In this document: positions 10,909 through 28,026 of the stretch, in pieces | Layout: every line of letters starts with the position of its first letter | Position numbering within the stretch: position 1 is the stretch's first letter | Virus record (IMG/VR): IMGVR_UViG_3300034159_000051 | Coordinates: 65,261 to 129,260 of that record | Direction: 5' to 3' (one strand) | DNA from: a virus | DNA length: 64,000 nucleotides | Notes under the pieces: model-generated | Told to the model about the DNA's origin: nothing | Seen by the model: the letters and a program-made list of their open reading frames with translations, nothing else | The model's database searches: none | Made by a program: the position numbers and the translations under genes

Positions 10909-11259
10909 ATGAAACACCGTAACCACAAAGACCGCTGGCGTCACGATGACGCCGACGAAAACGAAGGCTACGAATCCGGCCCAGATTGGAGAAAGGCGCA
11001 AGCCGACGAGCTGGGCCGGATGAACGGCGCCGCCGGGCACATTGACGCGATCCCCGCGGCGCCCAAGGAAAGGCCCACCTTTACGACGCCGCCCGGGCCA
11101 GCGTTGGACATGATCAACGTCATTGCCGAGGATTTGACCGCAACGCTGCAGCGCTCCGACGCGCTAGAGAGGCGAAGCCAGATCGCCTTGTGGCTGATCT
11201 TCGTCGGCGTAGCCTCGGGCGCTGCGATCGGCTTTTATCTGGGGCTTATCAGCAAATGA
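10909..11259 (+). CDS. hypothetical protein with C-terminal TM helix
   Basis: AGGGATCAG RBS; hydrophobic C-terminus. Confidence 0.6.
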   Translation: MKHRNHKDRWRHDDADENEGYESGPDWRKAQADELGRMNGAAGHIDAIPAAPKERPTFTTPPGPALDMINVIAEDLTATLQRSDALERRSQIALWLIFVGVASGAAIGFYLGLISK

Positions 11260-14731: not shown

Positions 14732-15710
14732 GCGACCTAGCGATCTTCCGGGGCGCTACGCCCCAAGAGGCGGCGCCGCCGACGACAAAAAGACGGCGAT
14801 GCAGCGCCAAGAAGAAAGAATCAAAGAGATCCTGGGGCCTTGGTGCACCGTCAAAGACAAGAATCCGCCGCATCCTATTTTCCCGCGCCATGTCCGTGAT
14901 TCTCTTCAGAAATGGATGATCGAACTCACGCCCGAGGCGGCGGCCGGACTAAAAGCGCTCAAAACTGAGCCCAGGCGGTCCGCCCTGCTTCACGGGAAAC
15001 CGGGAACAGGAAAAACCTCTTATACGCACACATTCGCGGCGCATATGGGGCTTCCCCTGGCGATCGTCGATTCCAACCGCGTCATTGAAAAATGGGTAGG
15101 AGAGTCGGCGGCGAACTGCGGGCGTCTCCTCAAGGCGATGGATAGCGTCTACGATCAATGCCTCATTTTCTTCGATGAGATCGACGCCCTGGCGACGGCG
15201 CGAACCGGCGAGGGCGGGGCATCCAGAGAGCGCGAGCAGGCCATGAACGTTCTCATGACCGGTCTGGAGGATTACAAGGGCATCTGGGTCGCAGCCACCA
15301 ACCTTGAGTCGAACCTGGACGGCGCATTCTGGCGGCGTTTCAATTTGCAGGTCCATATTCCGATGCCAGGGCCTGCGGAGCGCTTTGCAATCATCCGAAT
15401 GTACGCGGAGCCGCTTTATCCAAGCGATGACGCCACCCAGCTTTTGGTCGACGCCACCGCAAACGCATCGCCGGCGCTCATCAAGGATTTGATCCAAGGC
15501 GTGAAACGAAACATCGTTTTGTGGCCGATGATCTACCCAGGCCGCGAGTTGATCCCATCTGATCTATTTAGGGATGTCATCACCTCCCTCTCTCCGCCTC
15601 CAAAACAAGAAAAGCCGCCGCTATGGCTTACGGAGAGCGCCGTTGACGATCTCGATAGAATGGACTGGCCCTGGCGGGATACGCCGCCCGAAGGAGAAGA
15701 CGAGGAATGA
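14715..15710 (+). CDS. AAA+ ATPase
   Basis: Walker A GKPGTGKT, KWVGES pore loop, Walker B IFFDEID, AATN...LDGAFWRRF. Confidence 0.9.
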   Translation: MTSNYRRPSDLPGRYAPRGGAADDKKTAMQRQEERIKEILGPWCTVKDKNPPHPIFPRHVRDSLQKWMIELTPEAAAGLKALKTEPRRSALLHGKPGTGKTSYTHTFAAHMGLPLAIVDSNRVIEKWVGESAANCGRLLKAMDSVYDQCLIFFDEIDALATARTGEGGASREREQAMNVLMTGLEDYKGIWVAATNLESNLDGAFWRRFNLQVHIPMPGPAERFAIIRMYAEPLYPSDDATQLLVDATANASPALIKDLIQGVKRNIVLWPMIYPGRELIPSDLFRDVITSLSPPPKQEKPPLWLTESAVDDLDRMDWPWRDTPPEGEDEE

Positions 15711-16102
15711 CAACCCCATCCAGAACGCCGCGAGATGTTATGAAGGCGCCTGGGAGTGTCCGGGCCGCTCTAGAGCGCAAAACGGCTGCGCCTCCAGAAA
15801 ATCCCGCATTCGAGCCGTACCAAAGGCCGGGCGGCTTCAAGGGCGGCCCCAAAAAAAGCAGGCACTTTGACGAGCCGGATTATATCCGGCCGTTCATCCT
15901 CGCGACCCAAGACGGCAAGCCCAGCGCCGATCGTGGCGTAGGGATCGCGCGCGATTGCGTCGGCGGCGTGTGCGCCGGTGCGCAACCGAATGTCACAATC
16001 CTTTATCCGAGAGGAGGGAAGGGAGTCCCGGTCGTCGGGGACTGGAGAGACATATATAGATGGTGGATCAAAGGCTATCCGAAATGCAAGCTCCCGGTTT
16101 AG
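15707..16102 (+). CDS. hypothetical protein
   Basis: ATGA-coupled to the AAA gene. Confidence 0.5.
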   Translation: MTTPSRTPRDVMKAPGSVRAALERKTAAPPENPAFEPYQRPGGFKGGPKKSRHFDEPDYIRPFILATQDGKPSADRGVGIARDCVGGVCAGAQPNVTILYPRGGKGVPVVGDWRDIYRWWIKGYPKCKLPV

Positions 16103-16110
16103 CCGCTGGC

Positions 16111-16139
16111 TTGCGTAGCGATTAAGCGGAGGTTATAGT
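16111..16139 (+). promoter_or_regulatory. sigma70-type promoter for the ORF-Tas-array operon
   Basis: TTGCGT-17 nt-TATAGT. Confidence 0.55.
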
Positions 16140-16291
16140 CTTTGAAAGAGGGTCGGCCCAGAGAACATATCCATTCATAGGCCGTATTGCGGTTGCCGAC
16201 TTTCTTTCAAAGCCGCGCCGGGGCCAAGCGCTGCCTGTAACCCGATACCGGTTTTCTCTGGCGCGGCTTTGAACAAACGAAAGGGATCAGA

Positions 16292-17086
16292 ATGGAACAC
16301 AACAAAGCAACGGAGACGCCAAGGTTCGCTACGCCTCCGGTGTTTGCCGTCTCTCAATTCGAAAAACAGCGCATGCTCATCCTCCATGCATGGTATTCCG
16401 ATTTTATCGCTGAGGGCGGCAAGCCGGTTGAATTTATGCGCGAGGTTATCGTGCGTATCCACCGCGTTCAGACCGTTTTTGACGGCAAGCTGTCCGTCAA
16501 CGCGTTGTTCGAACCCATCCCGCCCCGGGCGGATGATAACCCCTTCGATTCCTCTTCGGCTGGCCCGGTTTCTGGCGCCGACGGCCACACCACCAACGCC
16601 AGCCGATCCCCCAATGAGCAGGGCCGAAAGGATGGCGCCGAAAGGCTGGTCGCTGATCGCCCTGCTCAGCATGAAAGCGCCTCCGGCCAGGAAGCAGACG
16701 CTCAAGGTCGCGAGCCGAGCGCCGGAAGCGCTCCCCAAGACGGCGGGCGAGGTCATAATGACCTTGCCGGCAACGGCCGCCACGTTAGCGCCTCGCCCGT
16801 CCGTCGAAACACCGGTCCCAATGAGCTGCAGCGGGAAATCGCCCGAGAAGTCGCCCAATCGGCCGCCAAGACGATCCTGGAAACATTCCGGTTCGCGAAC
16901 GGGTCCGCCCTCGGCGAGGTTTATCTTAACGACCTCGAAAACTACGAGATGAAAAGCTCCGTTGACGCCTTTGTCGCCCGGCAAATCCGGCTCGCGTTCA
17001 AAGGCCACCCAAATTGCCGGGTCAAGGAGCTGCCTCTTGGGACCATTGAGGCGATCGTCAGCCGAGCCAACAAAGAGGCCGAGTGA
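16292..17086 (+). CDS. hypothetical protein co-transcribed with the Tas-like gene
   Basis: AGGGATCAG RBS; stop overlaps the Tas start (GTGATG). Confidence 0.65.
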   Translation: MEHNKATETPRFATPPVFAVSQFEKQRMLILHAWYSDFIAEGGKPVEFMREVIVRIHRVQTVFDGKLSVNALFEPIPPRADDNPFDSSSAGPVSGADGHTTNASRSPNEQGRKDGAERLVADRPAQHESASGQEADAQGREPSAGSAPQDGGRGHNDLAGNGRHVSASPVRRNTGPNELQREIAREVAQSAAKTILETFRFANGSALGEVYLNDLENYEMKSSVDAFVARQIRLAFKGHPNCRVKELPLGTIEAIVSRANKEAE

Positions 17087-17949
17087 TGGGCGAGGATATC
17101 GAAAGGCTCGTCGAGCAGATCCGCTATTGGCACCGGCAGCGCTGTTTCGCGATGGAACAGCGCAAGCGATCGGTTTTGGCCACGGCGGCTTTTTTGCGCA
17201 TCGACCTCGGCTGGAACCCGGACCTTCCTAAAAAAGAGCGCGACGTCATCTCCGCCAAGGCGCTCGACATGCTTAAGCCGGGCGGCGTCGCCCCAGAACA
17301 TCCTATGTTCGAAATGATCATGGCCTCCCATGCCGCGCGGGCGCCGTTTCTCGGCGTAGAGACAAAGGCGACGAAACAAATGGAAGCGCTCGCCAAGACG
17401 TTGCCGGTCTGGAACGCATGGGCGCGCGACGTCCGGGCGTTCGGCCCGCGATCGCTTGCCGTCATTGTCGGAGAGGCTGGAGACATTGGCTCCTACAGCA
17501 CGCATTCGAAGCTTTGGAAACGCATGGGCCTCGCCGTCATCAACGGCGTGCGGCAGGGCGGCCTGAAAAAGACGGCCAAAGCCTCGGAATGGATCGAGCA
17601 CGGCTACAACGCCAAGCGCCGCGCATCGTCCTTTGTGATCGGAGATTGCCTTGTGAAGCAGGGCGCGGAGTTCCGCGAAGTCTATCTCGCCAGGAAGGAA
17701 TATGAGCGCGCCAAGGCCATCGAGCGCGGTCTGATCGTTGCGCCGGCCGCCAAGATCCCAAAAGGCCAGGAGGAGCATTACATCTCCGACGGCCACATCC
17801 ATAAGCGCAGCCAGCGCTACATGGAAAAGAAGCTCCTGCGCCGGTTATGGCAGGAATGGCGGAAGATCGGCAGGGAGGACATGACCCAACCTGGAGACGC
17901 CGACATCCCGCCGCTCGCTATGGAGCGCGTTAACGAGATCGCCGCATGA
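17083..17949 (+). CDS. TasA-like Nop-domain (IS110 C-terminal-like) RNA-binding protein, no RuvC/HNH
   Basis: Helical N-terminus (RYWHRQR...RKR), then VRAFGPRSLAVIVGEAGDIGSYSTHSKLWKRMGLA (IS110/IS116 C-terminal/Nop signature) and HIHKRSQRYMEKKLLRRLW; no DEDD domain; array starts 7 nt after the stop. Confidence 0.8.
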   Translation: MMGEDIERLVEQIRYWHRQRCFAMEQRKRSVLATAAFLRIDLGWNPDLPKKERDVISAKALDMLKPGGVAPEHPMFEMIMASHAARAPFLGVETKATKQMEALAKTLPVWNAWARDVRAFGPRSLAVIVGEAGDIGSYSTHSKLWKRMGLAVINGVRQGGLKKTAKASEWIEHGYNAKRRASSFVIGDCLVKQGAEFREVYLARKEYERAKAIERGLIVAPAAKIPKGQEEHYISDGHIHKRSQRYMEKKLLRRLWQEWRKIGREDMTQPGDADIPPLAMERVNEIAA

Positions 17950-18868
17950 GCGGCGCGCGGGAGGCCAGTTCAGCTACGCCGAGCGGCCGCTTGGTTATCG
18001 CCTCCCGCGACTCGGTTAAGCAGGGCCAGCGTACTGACGCCGAGAGGCTGGTTATGGATCGCCCTGCTTTCGAATCAGGAGAGGCCATTGGCTAAGAGCC
18101 GCAAGGACATACTGCATCCGCCTCTCCTTTCCTTTTTCTCGGGTCACAGCAAACGAGCCGATAGGCCACGTCAACCTTTCCCGAGAATCCGGTTAAGCAG
18201 GGCCTTGCCAATAGATCCGAAAGGCCATGGTCCGGACGCCCTGCTTTCCCTTTTGCGAGGCCCAACACCAGCCGCCGAAAGGCCATCCTTTCTGCGCCTC
18301 GCAATCCCTTTTCCTTGGGCCAATACGTTCGCGCGAAAGCCAAGCTCGCATCGCCCAAGGTTCCCACTTTGCGAGGCCAAACTCGCGCTGCCGAAAGGCC
18401 ATGGTTTCAGCACCTCGCAATCCCCTATGGGCGGGTCCAAGTCTCGTCGCCGCAAGGCCGAGGACCGAATTCCCGCCCAACCCAACGACGGAAGGCCAGC
18501 GATCGCGCTCCATCGAAGGTCATCGAATTGGCGCCTTCCGTCCCCCTCATTCAAAGTTTGCCGGGCCATTCATGAATTGCCGCACAGCCAAAGAGCTAAC
18601 GCCCGGCGCCTTCTTTGTAGGGCCAGAACTATCGCGCCGGAAGGCCGCGTCGACTCTGCCCTGCAAAACTATTTCGCGAGGCCAGCTAGCGATTGGCGAA
18701 AGCCCAAACCAAAAACGCCTCGCGATCCTCAACGACGGAAGGCCATATTACGCGCGCGCTACAGCGCCATGGACTTTTCGCCTTCCGTCTTTCTATTCAG
18801 AGTTTGCCAGGACAGCCTTCTAATGCCTAACGGCCACCCCTGCTTTTCCTGGCGCTCTTCACAAGAGT

Positions 18869-18945
18869 GGTCCCGTAGCTCAACTGGACAGAGCGCCAGC
18901 CTTCTAAGCTGGGTGTTGGGGGTTCAAGTCCCTCCGGGATCGCCA
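18869..18945 (+). tRNA. tRNA-Arg(TCT), embedded in the array
   Basis: GGTCCCG acceptor, CCAGC-CTTCTAA-GCTGG anticodon arm, GGTTCAAGTCC T-loop, encoded CCA. Confidence 0.95.
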
Positions 18946-19323
18946 ACCCTTTGCCGGGCCGGATTACTATCGCCGCAAGGCTATCCACGAAGCGCCCGGC
19001 GATCCCTTTGCGAGACCTCCATACGGATGCCGAAAGGCCAAAAATGGGACGTCTCGCATCCCTACAGCCCGGCCACCTCCTGCGCGCCGAGAGGTCAGTC
19101 AAACCACGCCGGGCTACTTCTTGCAGGGCCAAATCAGATGCGTCGAGAGTCCATTTTTCCGGCCGCCCTGCATCCTATCCGCTTCGGCGGGCGCGCGGCC
19201 GCGGATGGAAAGTCGAAAGGCCGCCCTTGTCTTGCCGCGCGCAACCCTTTGCCGGGCCACTGCCTAAGCGCCGAAAGGTCAGGTTATCACTGCCCGGCGA
19301 TTCATTTACAAGGATGCGATTTC

Positions 19324-19623
19324 TTGAACGACTTTCCGAAAGCTCTCAATGAATGGCAATCCAAGCTCTACGATCTCGGATACCCGGGGCCTTATGAAGC
19401 GGGATCGATGATGATTGCCGCTACGCGAAAAAGAAGAATCGATAATTTTAGCCTTGTTAGATATTCCCCCAGGGACTGGCATGCCGAAGTAACATTCAAG
19501 CCCGACCAAAGGCCGGCAACTGTTGATCACCCTTATGGCTCCCTTGAGGGAAAGGGCAAGACCCCAGAAGAAGCCGTCGCAAATCTCATGATTGCGCATC
19601 CTGAACTTTGGCGGGTAGCATAA
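19324..19623 (+). CDS. small hypothetical protein inserted within the array
   Basis: Non-repeat ~330-nt gap between units 21 and 22; AAGGA then in-frame TTG; ends GKGKTPEEAVANL. Confidence 0.55.
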   Translation: MNDFPKALNEWQSKLYDLGYPGPYEAGSMMIAATRKRRIDNFSLVRYSPRDWHAEVTFKPDQRPATVDHPYGSLEGKGKTPEEAVANLMIAHPELWRVA

Positions 19624-20049
19624 TGCATCCTCTTTGCGAGGCCCATGAACTGGAGCCGATCGGCCTCATATGATTCGCCTTGCAATCCGAACGACGAAAG
19701 GCCATCCGACCTACGCCGAAAGGCTAGTTTGTAATCGCCTTCCGTCACCCCTTCCGCCTCTGGCGGGCGCGCGGCCATACGGCCATAGCCGCAAGGCCAC
19801 TGCAGCGTCGCCGCGCGCAAAGTTTGTCTGGCCTCCATGCGGACGCCGAAGGCCAAGCGTATAGCGCCAGACAAACCCATTCCGACGGGCCATGGGAGTC
19901 TCGCCGAAAGGTCGTTCTTCAGACGCCCGTCGGAACCTTCTTGCGCTGTGACTGGCGAAGCAGTTATAGGATCCCTTGCGGTCTGAGGGAGGGAAGCCTG
20001 ATCCGGTTCAGTTTTGCGTTAGTGGGGACACGCAAACACGGATCATCCT

Positions 20050-20937
20050 ATGATTTTAGGCCGGCGCCGAAACACGCCTATTTCGCTCGCCTCATGCGCA
20101 GGCAGCTATGGAGCCTCAGCAAACGGTCGGCTCATCGTCCGCCCTCAAGGCCCGGTAAACTCGGGCGCAGCCAACAAGAAGGATGAGGGCGACGCTCCGT
20201 GGAGACCGGAAGGACTTTCCGAAGCAGAGGTCGTTCAGCAGATCACAGAGCCACTCAGGGCCTTCTTTGAAGCTATAGAGCCCGTGCGACCGCGCAAAGC
20301 CACTGTAGCCGTCCAGTCCGATCCCTTGGGCCTTAAAACCGGAGCCTACGCCCGCAGGCCCAAGACATTTCCGAACAAGCCGACGAAGGAGCGCCTGGAT
20401 CGCGCGAGGGAGGCCGGCGAGTGCCTGGACGATCGCCCGATCCTTAGCGACAGGGGCGAGAAGCTTTCCGAGACGATAACCGAGATTACGCCGACCTTGC
20501 GCAACCTGAGAACGCGAGGCACGATCGACTCGAATGAATATGCGGCGGCTCTAAGGCTTTGCCAGGACTGGCACGGCGCCCGGTTTCGCGGCGCGGCGAC
20601 CGTCCGCTATCGCGAGCGGGTCGACGGCGAGGGCGGCCGGGATTACGAGAGCGATTACGTAATTACCTGCCGACAGAGCGTCCATTCGGCTTTGCGGTCG
20701 GTGCACAAAATTCTGAGCCCGGCGCTCGCCTGGGTCATTTCGACGATGGGGGACGCCCCTCCCCTTTCCAAGCTCGGCGAATATTACGCGCCAGACAAAG
20801 GCGTCAACGTCCAGAGCACGCGGGGGGCCGATGCGCTCCGCTTTGCGCTCGCGATCCTGTGCGAGCACTACGGCATAGACCACCGGCTTGTGCGGCTGTC
20901 AAAATCGACGGAGACCATCGTCGCAATGATGGGATGA
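20050..20937 (+). CDS. late-gene regulator-like protein (Q/DUF6456-like)
   Basis: LRNLRTRGTIDSNEYAAALRL..DW...RVDG...ALRFALAILCEHYG pattern seen in alphaproteobacterial prophages; start uncertain. Confidence 0.55.
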   Translation: MILGRRRNTPISLASCAGSYGASANGRLIVRPQGPVNSGAANKKDEGDAPWRPEGLSEAEVVQQITEPLRAFFEAIEPVRPRKATVAVQSDPLGLKTGAYARRPKTFPNKPTKERLDRAREAGECLDDRPILSDRGEKLSETITEITPTLRNLRTRGTIDSNEYAAALRLCQDWHGARFRGAATVRYRERVDGEGGRDYESDYVITCRQSVHSALRSVHKILSPALAWVISTMGDAPPLSKLGEYYAPDKGVNVQSTRGADALRFALAILCEHYGIDHRLVRLSKSTETIVAMMG

Positions 20938-20951
20938 CGCATGCAGGAAAA

Positions 20952-21167
20952 CTAACAGGGGCCGCCCTCCCTTGTCTTAAGGTCGCCGGCTCTGACAGCC
21001 TTGACCCACTCTATGGCCTTTTCCAGCGCATCGATTTGGGCCGCGCTGGCAAGATGGAGCGCCGTCCGGTAGCCCGGCGTGGTTTGCCCGATGACGAGGT
21101 GATCGCTGAAGGTATTGTACGAGACCTCGATTGCGCCGAACTTCCTAAAAAGCGAAGCGTCACCCAT
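20952..21167 (-). CDS. hypothetical protein
   Basis: GAGGTG RBS; follows the nucleotidyltransferase. Confidence 0.45.
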   Translation of the reverse strand: MGDASLFRKFGAIEVSYNTFSDHLVIGQTTPGYRTALHLASAAQIDALEKAIEWVKAVRAGDLKTREGGPC

Positions 21168-22158
21168 TGATCACCACCTCTCTGTAAACATCGGCGACAA
21201 AGTCATCGCACCATTCGTAATCAGGCTTCTCAGGAAGAGTCGATTTGATAGCCGCCGCCTCCACCTCCGCGAGGAGACGCTCGATCTCTTCCGCCACTGG
21301 CGCGTAGGCCAGCTTCCCGGTCTTGATCTCAATCAGATGCGCTGCATCTGGCCGAGGAAAGGTCACAAACCCCGTCGACAGGTATTCCAGGCACTGCGTC
21401 CCGACGCGGACGGCGTGGCTGAGCGCTTTCCAGTCAATCCCCTCGTTGCGTTCAGCCTGGAGCGCCCGCTCGCCATATTCATCGACGATGCGCTTGTAGA
21501 TCGCATGCGCCTCTTTCAGAGACACGGTGAACGGCGCTTTGCGCTCACAAACAACGAGGTGGCGGATCACTGCGCCATTGCCGGGGTTCTCGATATCCTC
21601 GATTCCGGCGTGCTCCGTCGAATGCGTAAAACTCTCCACCGCCCAAGCGAAGTCGGAGAGCTTCCGAATCGGACCGTTCTTTTCGATAAAGCTAGCGAGC
21701 AGATTTGTGATTCCACGAGCTGCGGCGACGCGAGATCCCTTGATGCCGTATTTTGCAGCCTGCTTGCGGCAATACCCAAGGAACGGCGCGCACTGGCGTG
21801 ACACCAGCCGATGTCGGTTGTCCCAGATCTCCGCCCACTCCTCGGAAAAGTCGTGATCGGCTCCGCATTTGAGGAGCGGCGTCGCGAACAGCATATCCAA
21901 GGCGACTGTCTGCCCCTCGCAGAACAGCCTCAAGAACTTAGCGAGCGAGTAGCTCTCAAAGTCGGTGTCGCCGGCCGTGTTTTTTCGAGTATGCCCTCCG
22001 ACGCTCGTTTTGGCTTGCCGGTTGATCGTCTCTTTGGCCCGGCCGAGCAGGATATCGCGCGCGCCTGGGATATGGACCTCTTTGATGTCAAGGTCGGATT
22101 CCGGTGTGGCCGTCCCGTAAAGGTGCGACCCAAATTTCATAGAAATGATTGTTCTCAT
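21160..22158 (-). CDS. Pol-beta-superfamily nucleotidyltransferase (Nuc-transf/RlaP-like)
   Basis: FGSHLYGTATPESDLD motif; DWKALSHAVR...F.RPDA..L.EIK.G; STLPEKPD. Confidence 0.85.
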   Translation of the reverse strand: MRTIISMKFGSHLYGTATPESDLDIKEVHIPGARDILLGRAKETINRQAKTSVGGHTRKNTAGDTDFESYSLAKFLRLFCEGQTVALDMLFATPLLKCGADHDFSEEWAEIWDNRHRLVSRQCAPFLGYCRKQAAKYGIKGSRVAAARGITNLLASFIEKNGPIRKLSDFAWAVESFTHSTEHAGIEDIENPGNGAVIRHLVVCERKAPFTVSLKEAHAIYKRIVDEYGERALQAERNEGIDWKALSHAVRVGTQCLEYLSTGFVTFPRPDAAHLIEIKTGKLAYAPVAEEIERLLAEVEAAAIKSTLPEKPDYEWCDDFVADVYREVVING

Positions 22159-22171
22159 TGAATAAATTCCT

Positions 22172-22408
22172 CTATTTCCAAAATTTAGCATGTGGATATT
22201 GTTTGCTGACAAAGCGTTTCGCAGCTTCGCGGTTTTCCGCGGCGACGTATTTTGCGATGCTTCCGCTCATCGTAAAGCACATGAAGAACTTCGATGTGCG
22301 ATACTCTTTCCTTGTGATGTAGACGCGGCGGAGATAAACCACCTCCCCCGGCTTCGGACCGTCCAATTTTGTCCGCAATACTTCCTTCGACCGTGACAGC
22401 GTTCTCAT
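22172..22408 (-). CDS. hypothetical protein
   Basis: TAATG coupling to the HD gene. Confidence 0.45.
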   Translation of the reverse strand: MRTLSRSKEVLRTKLDGPKPGEVVYLRRVYITRKEYRTSKFFMCFTMSGSIAKYVAAENREAAKRFVSKQYPHAKFWK

Positions 22409-22953
22409 TAGTGAATGATCCCTGAGTAGTTTCCGAGGATGTCGCGCAGGCGCTTCAGCAGAATCGGGTCTGCGCCATCCAGAACATCAAGTAAGGCGTT
22501 CATCTCTCGAAGGTACACCTTGGCGAAATTTGGGTCTTTTTCGAAGATCGAATGCGCGTTCGATATGCAATCCGCTGTCTTGAGCGTCTTGGCGTCATCC
22601 GGCGCCGTAGCCAACCGCTCAAGCGTGCGCTGCTTCCGCGCGGCCCGGTTGAGGCCGGGGGCCGCTTTGTCGTCGGTCAGCCAATAAACGAGATCGCGAA
22701 CCTCAGAACCGAATATCTCTTTGATCAAGTCTAGCGTGATTTCGGTATCCTCAACGACATCATGCAGCCACGCCGCCGCCTCCATCTGAACGGTGTAGCC
22801 GCGCCCTTCGCGAGCAGTCGATTGAAGGATTTGAACCACCTCGGCAGGATGGACGATGTATGGTTCCTTGCCGTCTGAATATTTCCGCGTCTGCCCGATC
22901 GCAGCATGAGCTGCGGTCGCAAATAGTCTGGCGCGCTCGACGATATCTGTCAT
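22408..22953 (-). CDS. stand-alone RelA/SpoT-type HD hydrolase (small alarmone hydrolase-like)
   Basis: AH..QTRK...PYIVHP...AAAWLHDVVEDT...LTDDK...KTADCISN. Confidence 0.85.
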   Translation of the reverse strand: MTDIVERARLFATAAHAAIGQTRKYSDGKEPYIVHPAEVVQILQSTAREGRGYTVQMEAAAWLHDVVEDTEITLDLIKEIFGSEVRDLVYWLTDDKAAPGLNRAARKQRTLERLATAPDDAKTLKTADCISNAHSIFEKDPNFAKVYLREMNALLDVLDGADPILLKRLRDILGNYSGIIH

Positions 22954-22982
22954 TCGATCTGATCCCTTTGTTTGTGGCCGTT

Positions 22983-23216
22983 TTACCAGGAATAACGAAG
23001 AAGAACCAACTCATCATCCTCGACGCCGTTCTCGCGCAAATGCGCCAGCAAAGGCGCGTTCTTGACCGGGTCGCCGAACTTCCGCTCATTCGCAATCGAC
23101 ATGTGGATGACATACACGTCGTTGCCAAGATCGCGCTCCATCCACATCCGCTCGATCACTTCCCTGACCGCTTGCGGCGTCGTGAGATCGACGTCCAAAT
23201 ACCAGACCTTCTTCAT
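22983..23216 (-). CDS. hypothetical protein
   Basis: AGGGATCAG before ATG 23216. Confidence 0.55.
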   Translation of the reverse strand: MKKVWYLDVDLTTPQAVREVIERMWMERDLGNDVYVIHMSIANERKFGDPVKNAPLLAHLRENGVEDDELVLLRYSW

Positions 23217-23281: not shown

Positions 23282-23359
23282 TGGTAGACTCGGCGGGAGT
23301 TGAACCCGCGACCTTGGAGTTAAAAGCTCCCTGCTCTAACCGGGCTGAGCTACGAGTCT
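23282..23359 (-). tRNA. tRNA-Lys(TTT)
   Basis: Reverse complement folds as a cloverleaf; loop CTTTTAA; CCA end. Confidence 0.9.
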
Positions 23360-23369
23360 GCGTCGGTAA

Positions 23370-23444
23370 TGGTGCCCCCGCGAGGACTTGAACCCCGAAT
23401 CTCCCGCTTACAAGGCGGATGCCTTACCGTTCGGCTACAAGGGC
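23370..23444 (-). tRNA. tRNA-Thr(TGT)
   Basis: TCCGC-CTTGTAA-GCGGG anticodon arm; CCA end. Confidence 0.9.
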
Positions 23445-23577
23445 GCAAATTGTGAAAAGGGAAAGGACGGCGCGCGGACGCTGAAGCTTGGACGCTTAGC
23501 GTTTGGTGGTCGTTCGTGTCTTTCGGGGCGCGGTCATCATTCTGGATGGATAGCCTGTTTTGGTGACCGGGTCAAGG

Positions 23578-23653
23578 TGGCTGGAGCGGAAGGACTCGAA
23601 CCTTCGCGTGGAGGCTTCAAAGGCCCCTGCCTTACCAACTTGGCTACGCTCCA
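23578..23653 (-). tRNA. tRNA-Gln(TTG)
   Basis: GGGGC-CTTTGAA-GCCTC; T1-A72; CCA end. Confidence 0.92.
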
Positions 23654-23655
23654 AT

Positions 23656-23733
23656 TGGCGCGTTCGGCAGGACTTGAACCTGCGGCCCCCGGTTTCGTAG
23701 ACCGGCGCTCTGATCCAACTGAGCTACGAACGC
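23656..23733 (-). tRNA. tRNA-Arg(ACG)
   Basis: CCGGT-CTACGAA-ACCGG; CCA end. Confidence 0.92.

Positions 23734-27948: not shown

Positions 27949-28026
<78 letters not shown>

Follow-up and report, generated by a model that had tools for sequence, protein, structure and literature searches.

How do the two short spacers of a single guide share out a double-stranded target? The question is raised by a locus in the IMG/VR virus record IMGVR_UViG_3300034159_000051, in which a tas gene is directly followed by an array of stem-loop units of the TIGR type, each with a spacer A and a spacer B. The last base of spacer A (A9) had been noticed to covary with the last base of spacer B (B9), and the original prediction read this as an RNA-RNA pair between the two spacer ends, leaving a target of eight plus eight base pairs. 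We analysed positions 65,261 to 129,260 of the record (hereafter, the window; 64,000 nt, the second half of the 129,260-bp record), and all coordinates count from the first base of the window. The main features are as follows.

17083..17949, plus strand: tas gene for a 288-aa nuclease-less Tas (TasA-like, coiled coil and Nop domain), from phmmer, AlphaFold2 and a fold search; directly upstream of the array
17955..19935, plus strand: stem-loop TIGR array of 26 dual-spacer units, parsed from the sequence and with covariance model R1
17968, 18029, 18088, 18147, 18206, 18264, 18323, 18380, 18439, plus strand: A-spacer starts of units 1-9
18499, 18569, 18626, 18685, 18746, 18815, 18962, 19019, 19076, plus strand: A-spacer starts of units 10-18
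19132, 19202, 19260, 19645, 19705, 19778, 19835, 19893, plus strand: A-spacer starts of units 19-26
17976, plus strand: column A9 of unit 1, with its partner B9 at 17998

Covariation of the last spacer bases

Each unit starts with a variable palindromic stem ending in GGC, followed by CA, the 9-nt spacer A, YGCC, a loop, GGC, CA, the 9-nt spacer B, YGCC, and the second stem arm (alignment A2). In TIGR terms, box C is CCA and box D is YG. The loop between the spacers is short and GNRA-like, mostly GAAA or GCAA, and a T-rich consensus, nTTnGC, precedes the stems. Covariance model R1 recovered all 26 units with E from 1.7e-11 to 2.3e-7, while Tandem Repeats Finder reported no repeat over 15000-23000, because the units are too diverse. 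The coordinate of A9 is the A-spacer start plus 8, and B9 is the base directly before the YGCC that opens the 3' stem arm. Unit 19, whose B interval is 10 nt long, was registered from its 3' end, as had been done earlier.

A9 and B9 are Watson-Crick complementary in 15 of the 26 units (1, 2, 3, 6, 8, 9, 11, 12, 13, 15, 19, 20, 21, 23, and 26), form a G-T combination in five (4, 7, 14, 16, and 22), and are incompatible in six (5, 10, 17, 18, 24, and 25). This reproduces, unit for unit, the hand count of the original prediction. Its estimate of about six to seven Watson-Crick units by chance also agrees with the expectation of 6.4 computed from the column composition, which is far below the 15 seen (permutation p 1.45e-4, 200,000 shuffles). 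With the G-T combinations added, 20 of 26 units are compatible (p 3.5e-4). Among the 81 combinations of an A position with a B position, A9-B9 is at the top, with a family-wise p of 0.011 in 5,000 shuffles of whole partners.

A search over the size range of 158-504 aa found 638 Tas homologues; 32 homologues were aligned (alignment A1), and 17 genome, 80 viral, and 80 metagenome loci were fetched. The covariance model derived from the window found 90 units in the first 97 loci, every one of them on the tas strand; among the 74 non-redundant ones, 30 had a Watson-Crick A9-B9 combination against 16.3 expected (p 9e-5). A second covariance model, built from the matches of the first, gave 294 and 329 matches. 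A motif-plus-stem scanner, which accepts a unit only if it carries the box motifs, has 8 or more stem pairs, and lies next to another unit, yielded 642 clustered units on the tas strand versus six on the opposite strand. The 623 units outside the window were reduced to 514 (107 loci) by dropping those within Hamming distance 4 of a kept unit, and the values below refer to these 514 units unless another number is given.

Outside the window, A9 and B9 are Watson-Crick complementary in 222 units, while 125.9 are expected (Z 9.9; 4x4 chi-square p 7e-22). This confirms that the covariation is real and general in homologous loci; a larger set of homologous units had been proposed as the check, and the signal is kept there. 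A9-B9 is the sole strong cell among the 81, the next largest |Z| being at most 2.9. When partners are shuffled only within their locus, 209 of 474 units are Watson-Crick against 127.3 (Z 9.6). The signal is not heterogeneous across loci (p 0.17), occurs in both loop classes (177 of 397 units against 96.6, and 44 of 110 against 27.5), and has no association with the first base of box D. As for orthologous units with compensatory changes, only three near-identical pairs were present among 536 distinct units, which gives no power. Separately, in the hairpin-loop class A9 is somewhat complementary to B5 (Z 3.7, 110 units; 11 against 6.7 in the window), which could be chance among 81 cells.

The pattern of combinations is base-pair-like. 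Each of the four Watson-Crick combinations occurs 1.56-2.07 times as often as expected, G-T and T-G are neutral (1.07 and 1.14), and the ten remaining combinations are all depleted (0.41-0.89). A base-pair-like covariation in which G-U is not depleted agrees with a handshake in which A9 and B9 pair with each other in the RNA and read no DNA, the target then being A1-8 followed by the reverse complement of B1-8 (16 bp). The tolerance of G-U had itself been taken as a sign of such a pair, but G-U is at expectation and not enriched, and wobble is equally possible in RNA-DNA.

The strength of the pairing also speaks against an RNA-RNA pair. In two model-derived alignments, A9 and B9 form a standard pair in 59.8% (76/127) and 62.6% (77/123) of distinct units, whereas the cells of the outer helix are paired in 95.9% and 95.2%, and those of the inner helix in 99%. 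In the outer helix, 8 and 9 of 10 pairs change on both sides, with a covariation score reached by 0 of 500 shuffles. The A9-B9 pairing is a tendency rather than a rule. Moreover, in the published architecture the spacers run along the coiled coil between the two box D sites, with A9 by the loop-side box D and B9 by the stem-side box D, on different protomers and at opposite heteroduplex ends; once the heteroduplexes form, the two bases would probably be too far apart to pair. Nor does the likeness to the IS110 handshake suggest pairing between guides, since the handshake described for IS621 is RNA-DNA pairing after strand exchange, with a non-cognate duplex (Hiraizumi et al., 2024; PMC11208158).

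Two units of different viral contigs, at 11031-11082 of locus L064 and 11032-11083 of locus L070, have the stem and spacer B in common and differ in spacer A. This suggests that half-guides are replaceable one at a time.

Spacing of the two half-targets

Faure et al. [quoted passage not shown] From this polarity we derive that A comes first in the target, followed by B in reverse complement, and that the spacer 3' ends lie in the middle. According to Guan et al. (2026; bioRxiv 10.64898/2026.08.11.744272), the first paired tigRNA base of PlTasA is located at the duplex junction. With that geometry, an 18-bp target would have its two central pairs opposite A9 and B9; a 1-bp overlap of the half-sites would instead bring these two bases to opposite strands of a single pair.

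We favor the overlap. The array would encode stem-loop tigRNAs for a nuclease-less Tas dimer. The two spacers would pair with opposite DNA strands, and their 3' ends would meet at the target centre. Half-sites overlapping by one base pair would make a target of 17 bp (8 + 1 shared + 8), and the central pair would be read twice, by A9 on the bottom-strand base and by B9 on the top-strand base. A9 and B9 would then be mutually complementary whenever both match the target, the pairing being RNA-DNA on both sides, with no RNA-RNA pair. The centre may be the least constrained part of the target, with wobble or mismatch in many units and hence a partial signal, and other spacings may be used by a minority of guides. 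We give slightly better than an even chance to the claim that, in this Tas family, A9 and B9 read both strands of one shared central pair of a 17-bp target. We infer that the shared reading of one pair is the cause of the covariation, that the targets are largely coding, and that the geometry of published relatives can be borrowed; the argument for the mechanism is a statistical one.

The spacing can be approached from the guides themselves. The spacers show a weak period-3 GC signal, with positive covariance at lags 3 and 6 and a value close to zero at lag 1; all other lags are negative, apart from lag 8 in spacer B. This suggests that many targets are coding, and therefore that the spacing can be read, modulo 3, from how A1-8 and B1-8 are phased to each other. 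The phase of A1-8 versus the reverse complement of B1-8 fits a separation of 1 nt. GC covariance speaks for the phase of 17 bp (z +2.9) and against that of 18 bp (z -2.8). The codon-position likelihood of 17 bp exceeds that of 18 bp by 43.5 (shuffled-partner null with mean 4.0, standard deviation 8.4, and maximum of 200 shuffles 27.5) and that of 16 bp by 27.9 (mean 3.5, standard deviation 9.0, maximum of 200 shuffles 27.6). In a codon-usage model, the excess over shuffled partners is +26.7 for 17 bp (z 3.8), -25.1 for 18 bp (z -4.0), and -4.2 for 16 bp (z -0.6).

In simulations with pseudo-guides taken from random sites of the same genomes, as a positive control, the true spacing was recovered every time. 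The array DNA itself, read in direct orientation, gave no periodicity signal (z 0.8), and the preference for 17 bp remains with the position-locked frame excluded. By pair class, the 17-bp phase has z 3.0 in Watson-Crick units and z 3.1 in G-U units, and is weaker, z 1.2, in mismatch units. A junction dinucleotide log-odds test was discarded as circular, since the 17-bp junction steps in Watson-Crick units are the same as within-spacer steps. In both spacers, positions 3 and 6 also have a higher G+C content than the positions next to them, and position 9 is most often G (35%); such a composition, locked to positions 3, 6, and 9, may reflect binding preferences of the Tas dimer.

Position 9 also bears on the 16-bp target. 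In a codon-usage hold-out, it is predictable from its own spacer like positions 4-8 (z 5.1 versus 5.4-6.5), and therefore A9 and B9 both look target-derived. If position 9 continues the natural sequence, a contiguous 8 + 8 target would need A9 to be the complement of B8, yet this complementarity is at chance (Z 1.1). The 16-bp phase is incoherent as well, both in the codon-usage model (z -0.6) and under the strictest null, with partners deranged within the locus (474 units, 75 loci; z 0.1). In addition, the tRNA-Arg(tct) genes of candidate hosts match only the A half of unit 15, as described below. On the other side, the heteroduplexes of SpTasH fall one base pair short of the nine formed by PlTasA and TaTasR (Guan et al., 2026), and 16 bp is not separated from 17 bp under the strictest null (p 0.12). 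On balance, we regard direct pairing of A9 with B9 over a 16-bp target as quite unlikely. What stands of the earlier interpretation is a geometry other than 9 + 9, together with the 17-bp shared pair that it had offered as an alternative, which is now the best-supported reading; the handshake with an 8 + 8 target is not supported. Only the 17-bp model with a shared centre accounts jointly for the covariation, the target-like position 9, and the phase.

The contiguous 18-bp composite does not fit the data. At its junction, the ratio of same-base dinucleotides is 1.76, compared to 0.78-1.20 at the 16 internal steps, and so the centre of the composite is unlike natural DNA. In formal terms, complementary A9 and B9 amount to a same-base step (AA, CC, GG, or TT) in the 18-bp composite, and characterised relatives are reported to bind 18 bp; thus, binding or guide birth could favor a same-base dinucleotide at the centre of a contiguous 18-bp target. 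However, the 18-bp phase comes out anti-coherent whichever null is used (z -2.8, -4.0, and -3.3), the enrichment extends to all four same-base steps, even GG and CC, whose frequency at internal steps is below expectation (0.88-0.92), and no mechanism is known for such a preference. We consider it highly improbable. On a statistical basis, the guides depart from the rule of characterised TIGR systems, a contiguous natural 18-mer with no covariation of A and B, and the earlier suspicion that the geometry differs from a simple 9 + 9 = 18 holds: the contrast of 17 with 18 bp stands even under the strictest null (z 3.3, p 0.001).

The Tas dimer could also act as a flexible ruler that accepts several spacings (1-bp overlap, 2-bp overlap, and gaps), the guides being a mixture and the A9-B9 signal coming from the 1-bp-overlap subset only. 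The size of the signal fits such a mixture: the Watson-Crick excess outside the window (222 against 125.9) equals just about a quarter of the units, and the likelihood excesses reach ∼58% of the value simulated for a full-strength 17-bp rule, with the 16-bp phase near zero and not negative. There is also a small excess of 2-bp overlaps (51 against 36.8 of 540 units, p 0.01; in the window, unit 15 alone), and TaTasR tolerates 1- and 2-bp gaps (PMC12045711). Still, the mismatch units tend to the 17-bp phase and away from the 18-bp one, the signal shows no heterogeneity across loci, and overlaps of at least 3 bp show no excess. As the 18-bp phase is anti-coherent overall, contiguous 18-bp guides are no large part of any mixture. 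A flexible spacing as the whole explanation therefore seems rather unlikely to us.

Several results weigh against the shared central pair. Just 43% of units are Watson-Crick at A9-B9 and 61% form standard pairs, while a strict rule would yield far more. The window units alone are too few for the phase test (z 1.4). The phase resolves the spacing modulo 3 only, so that 20 bp (a 2-bp gap) scores the same as 17 bp; with a 20-bp target, however, A9 and B9 would be unrelated. Under the strictest null, the 17-bp phase has z 2.3, the 18-bp phase z -3.3, and the 16-bp phase z 0.1, and the contrast of 17 with 16 bp is non-significant (z 1.2, p 0.12). Much of the GC-covariance signal is in the ambiguous class of A3/A6 with B3/B6, and without that class 17 bp has z 1.8 and 18 bp z -2.9. 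A mononucleotide hold-out, a cruder test than the codon-usage one, shows no gain at position 9 (-4.1 +/- 3.0) or at position 8 (-1.3). Finally, the solved complexes of PlTasA, TaTasR, and CsTasR are reported to pair 9 + 9 contiguously (18 bp), on designed targets.

The target searches that we made yielded no natural target. In the 129-kb genome of the virus, searched with two geometries and gaps from -1 to +2, the best sites had 2-5 mismatches, no better than for mismatched partners. Exact 8 + 8 cores of 540 guides, searched at separations of 0-6 nt in ∼2 Mb of fetched loci and the genome, gave six matches versus 93 in ten shuffles, and in the sole match with 1-nt separation the centre is neither A9 nor the complement of B9. 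Among five candidate host genomes, identified via prophage loci, the tRNA-Arg(tct) gene of four matches unit 15 in the A half alone, with 3 mismatches in 16, and the fifth yielded no such gene.

Taken together, the shared central pair has about an even chance, a mixture of spacings comes next, and the handshake is unlikely. That an overlapping 17-bp rule is naturally used by the phage and prophage TasA family with stem-loop guides, several members of which are from Alphaproteobacteria, is a tentative generalization, to which we give somewhat less than an even chance.

The Tas protein and other features of the locus

The locus is a stem-loop TIGR-TasA system, of the kind described in 2025-2026. 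Residues 99-217 of its Tas match TaTasR (PDB 9mty_A; phmmer E 3.2e-9), while a Pfam search of the 288-aa protein found no family. The AlphaFold2 model (pLDDT 87.7) is mainly helical, with three short strands. In Foldseek, ranks 1-10 are TasR and TasH chains, including TasR of 9mty, with probability 1.00 and E from 3.6e-7 to 3.1e-4. These are followed by ISCro4 and IS621, both weak (E about 1e-2, TM 0.35-0.37), and then by Nop5. Neither a RuvC nor an HNH nuclease domain is seen, given the mostly helical model and the lack of a Pfam family, and hence the protein is TasA-like. In nucleotide comparison, megablast of 24 kb of the window against phage records gave no match, and tblastn of Tas against phage records gave three distant matches.

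Three features that define stem-loop TIGR-Tas systems are present: a Tas with a coiled-coil dimerisation region and a Nop RNA-binding domain (similar to the IS110 C-terminal one); tandem units, here 26, each with two 8-12-nt spacers between box C (CCA-like) and box D (UG or CG); and, instead of a constant edge repeat, variable but consistently palindromic flanks by which every unit is closed. The box motifs agree with those given by Xu et al. (2026; bioRxiv 10.64898/2026.09.09.750476) and in a yeast preprint. Without a RuvC or HNH nuclease domain, the protein belongs to the TasA subtype. The hallmarks of IS110, that is, RuvC-like and Tnp catalytic domains, target and donor loops, and a conserved core dinucleotide, are not found; each unit has one dual-guide loop, and no conserved central base is seen, with A9 being A in 114 units, C in 99, G in 178, and T in 123.

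The array is accompanied by further units and interrupted by a tRNA gene and a candidate reading frame.

16554-16608, 16614-16669, and 16743-16800, plus strand: three extra units upstream of tas (cmsearch E 1.6e-8, 1.4e-6, and 5.2e-4 with the model from the 26 window units)
18869..18945, plus strand: tRNA-Arg(tct) gene (ARAGORN), inserted between units 15 and 16
19324..19623, plus strand: candidate open reading frame (ORF) of 99 aa, starting with TTG and separating units 21 and 22; no match in Pfam

By eye, A9/B9 of the three upstream units are G-A, G-T, and T-G. All three fall within a program-made ORF at 16292-17086. Two long-stem hairpins with atypical loops also lie upstream of tas (16143-16209 and 16209-16270). 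The candidate ORF at 19324-19623, which breaks up the array, is relatively AT-rich and has a possible AAGGA ribosome site. A program-made 511-aa ORF, 18088-19623, spans most of the array in a single frame and is probably an accident of the GC-rich repeats, although intragenic tigRNAs are on record for other Tas loci. Five further tRNA genes of the window lie within 23282-23733 and 27950-28026: Lys-ttt, Thr-tgt, Gln-ttg, and Arg-acg, all four on the minus strand, and Met-cat on the plus strand.

Relation to known guide systems and implications

The closest known systems are those of the stem-loop TasA proteins PlTasA, BlTasA, and MbTasA (Faure et al., 2025, PMC12045711; Xu et al., 2026, bioRxiv 10.64898/2026.09.09.750476; Guan et al., 2026, bioRxiv 10.64898/2026.08.11.744272). 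Like them, the window has a nuclease-less Tas with a coiled coil and a Nop domain, and units with a variable covarying stem, a CCA box C, a YG box D, and two 9-nt spacers, located on both sides of tas and also within an ORF. The T-rich word at the base of the window stems is compatible with the reported CUU processing motif, and among relatives the 9-nt inter-spacer class is the commonest, as published. The catalogue of Xu et al. counts 17,756 stem-loop and 65,635 dual-repeat tigRNAs. Unlike in the published stem-loop TasA systems, A9 and B9 covary family-wide here, and the phase of the half-guides fits 17 and not 18 bp. By contrast, Faure et al. state that spacers A and B show no obvious covariation and that overlap is unlikely. 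Dual-repeat TasR and TasH (TaTasR, PDB 9mty; SpTasH, PDB 9w04) differ from the present system: their edge and loop repeats are constant, the guide is 36 nt long, and the protein has a nuclease domain. They target 18 bp, or 8 + 8 paired in SpTasH, gaps of 1-2 bp are tolerated, and overlap is not reported in the searchable text.

Overlap of two guide segments is found in IS621, whose target-binding loop of the bridge RNA resembles the present units in its homologous RNA-binding domain (by fold match) and in that one loop holds two guide segments reading opposite strands. There, the left target guide (LTG) pairs bottom-strand nucleotides 14 to 6 (top positions 1-9 in our reading) and the right target guide (RTG) top-strand nucleotides 8-11 (PMC11208158); therefore, the central pairs that form the CT core (positions 8 and 9) are covered twice, once by each segment. 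The IS110 overlap differs in that it is 2 bp long and lies on a conserved strand-exchange core, while here it would be 1 bp of free sequence. The enzymes differ as well: that of IS110 is a RuvC and Tnp recombinase, a tetramer on two DNAs, whereas the window Tas has no catalytic domain.

In the searchable text of two TIGR papers, neither "17-bp" nor "17 bp" occurs, and the passages of Xu et al. on covariation concern protein-RNA features and loop stems, not spacers. The A9-B9 covariation and the overlapping geometry it implies are absent from the TIGR papers that could be searched, while the system itself is of a known kind.

Natural targets of TIGR systems are still unknown, and Xu et al. note that short spacers give too many false matches. 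If the shared central pair is correct, natural targets have been sought with the wrong composite, and searches with 18-bp composites would miss real sites; the corrected composite, with shuffled partners as a control, could make the role of phage TasA testable. The codon-phase method is a general route to half-site spacing from guides alone. Under the 17-bp rule, the spacing of the half-sites and the behavior of the central position would be a design variable for engineering. The rule would also connect this family in evolution with the IS110 bridge RNAs, whose guides overlap as well: its single shared pair would lie between the 2 bp shared at the IS110 core and the lack of overlap in dual-repeat TasR.

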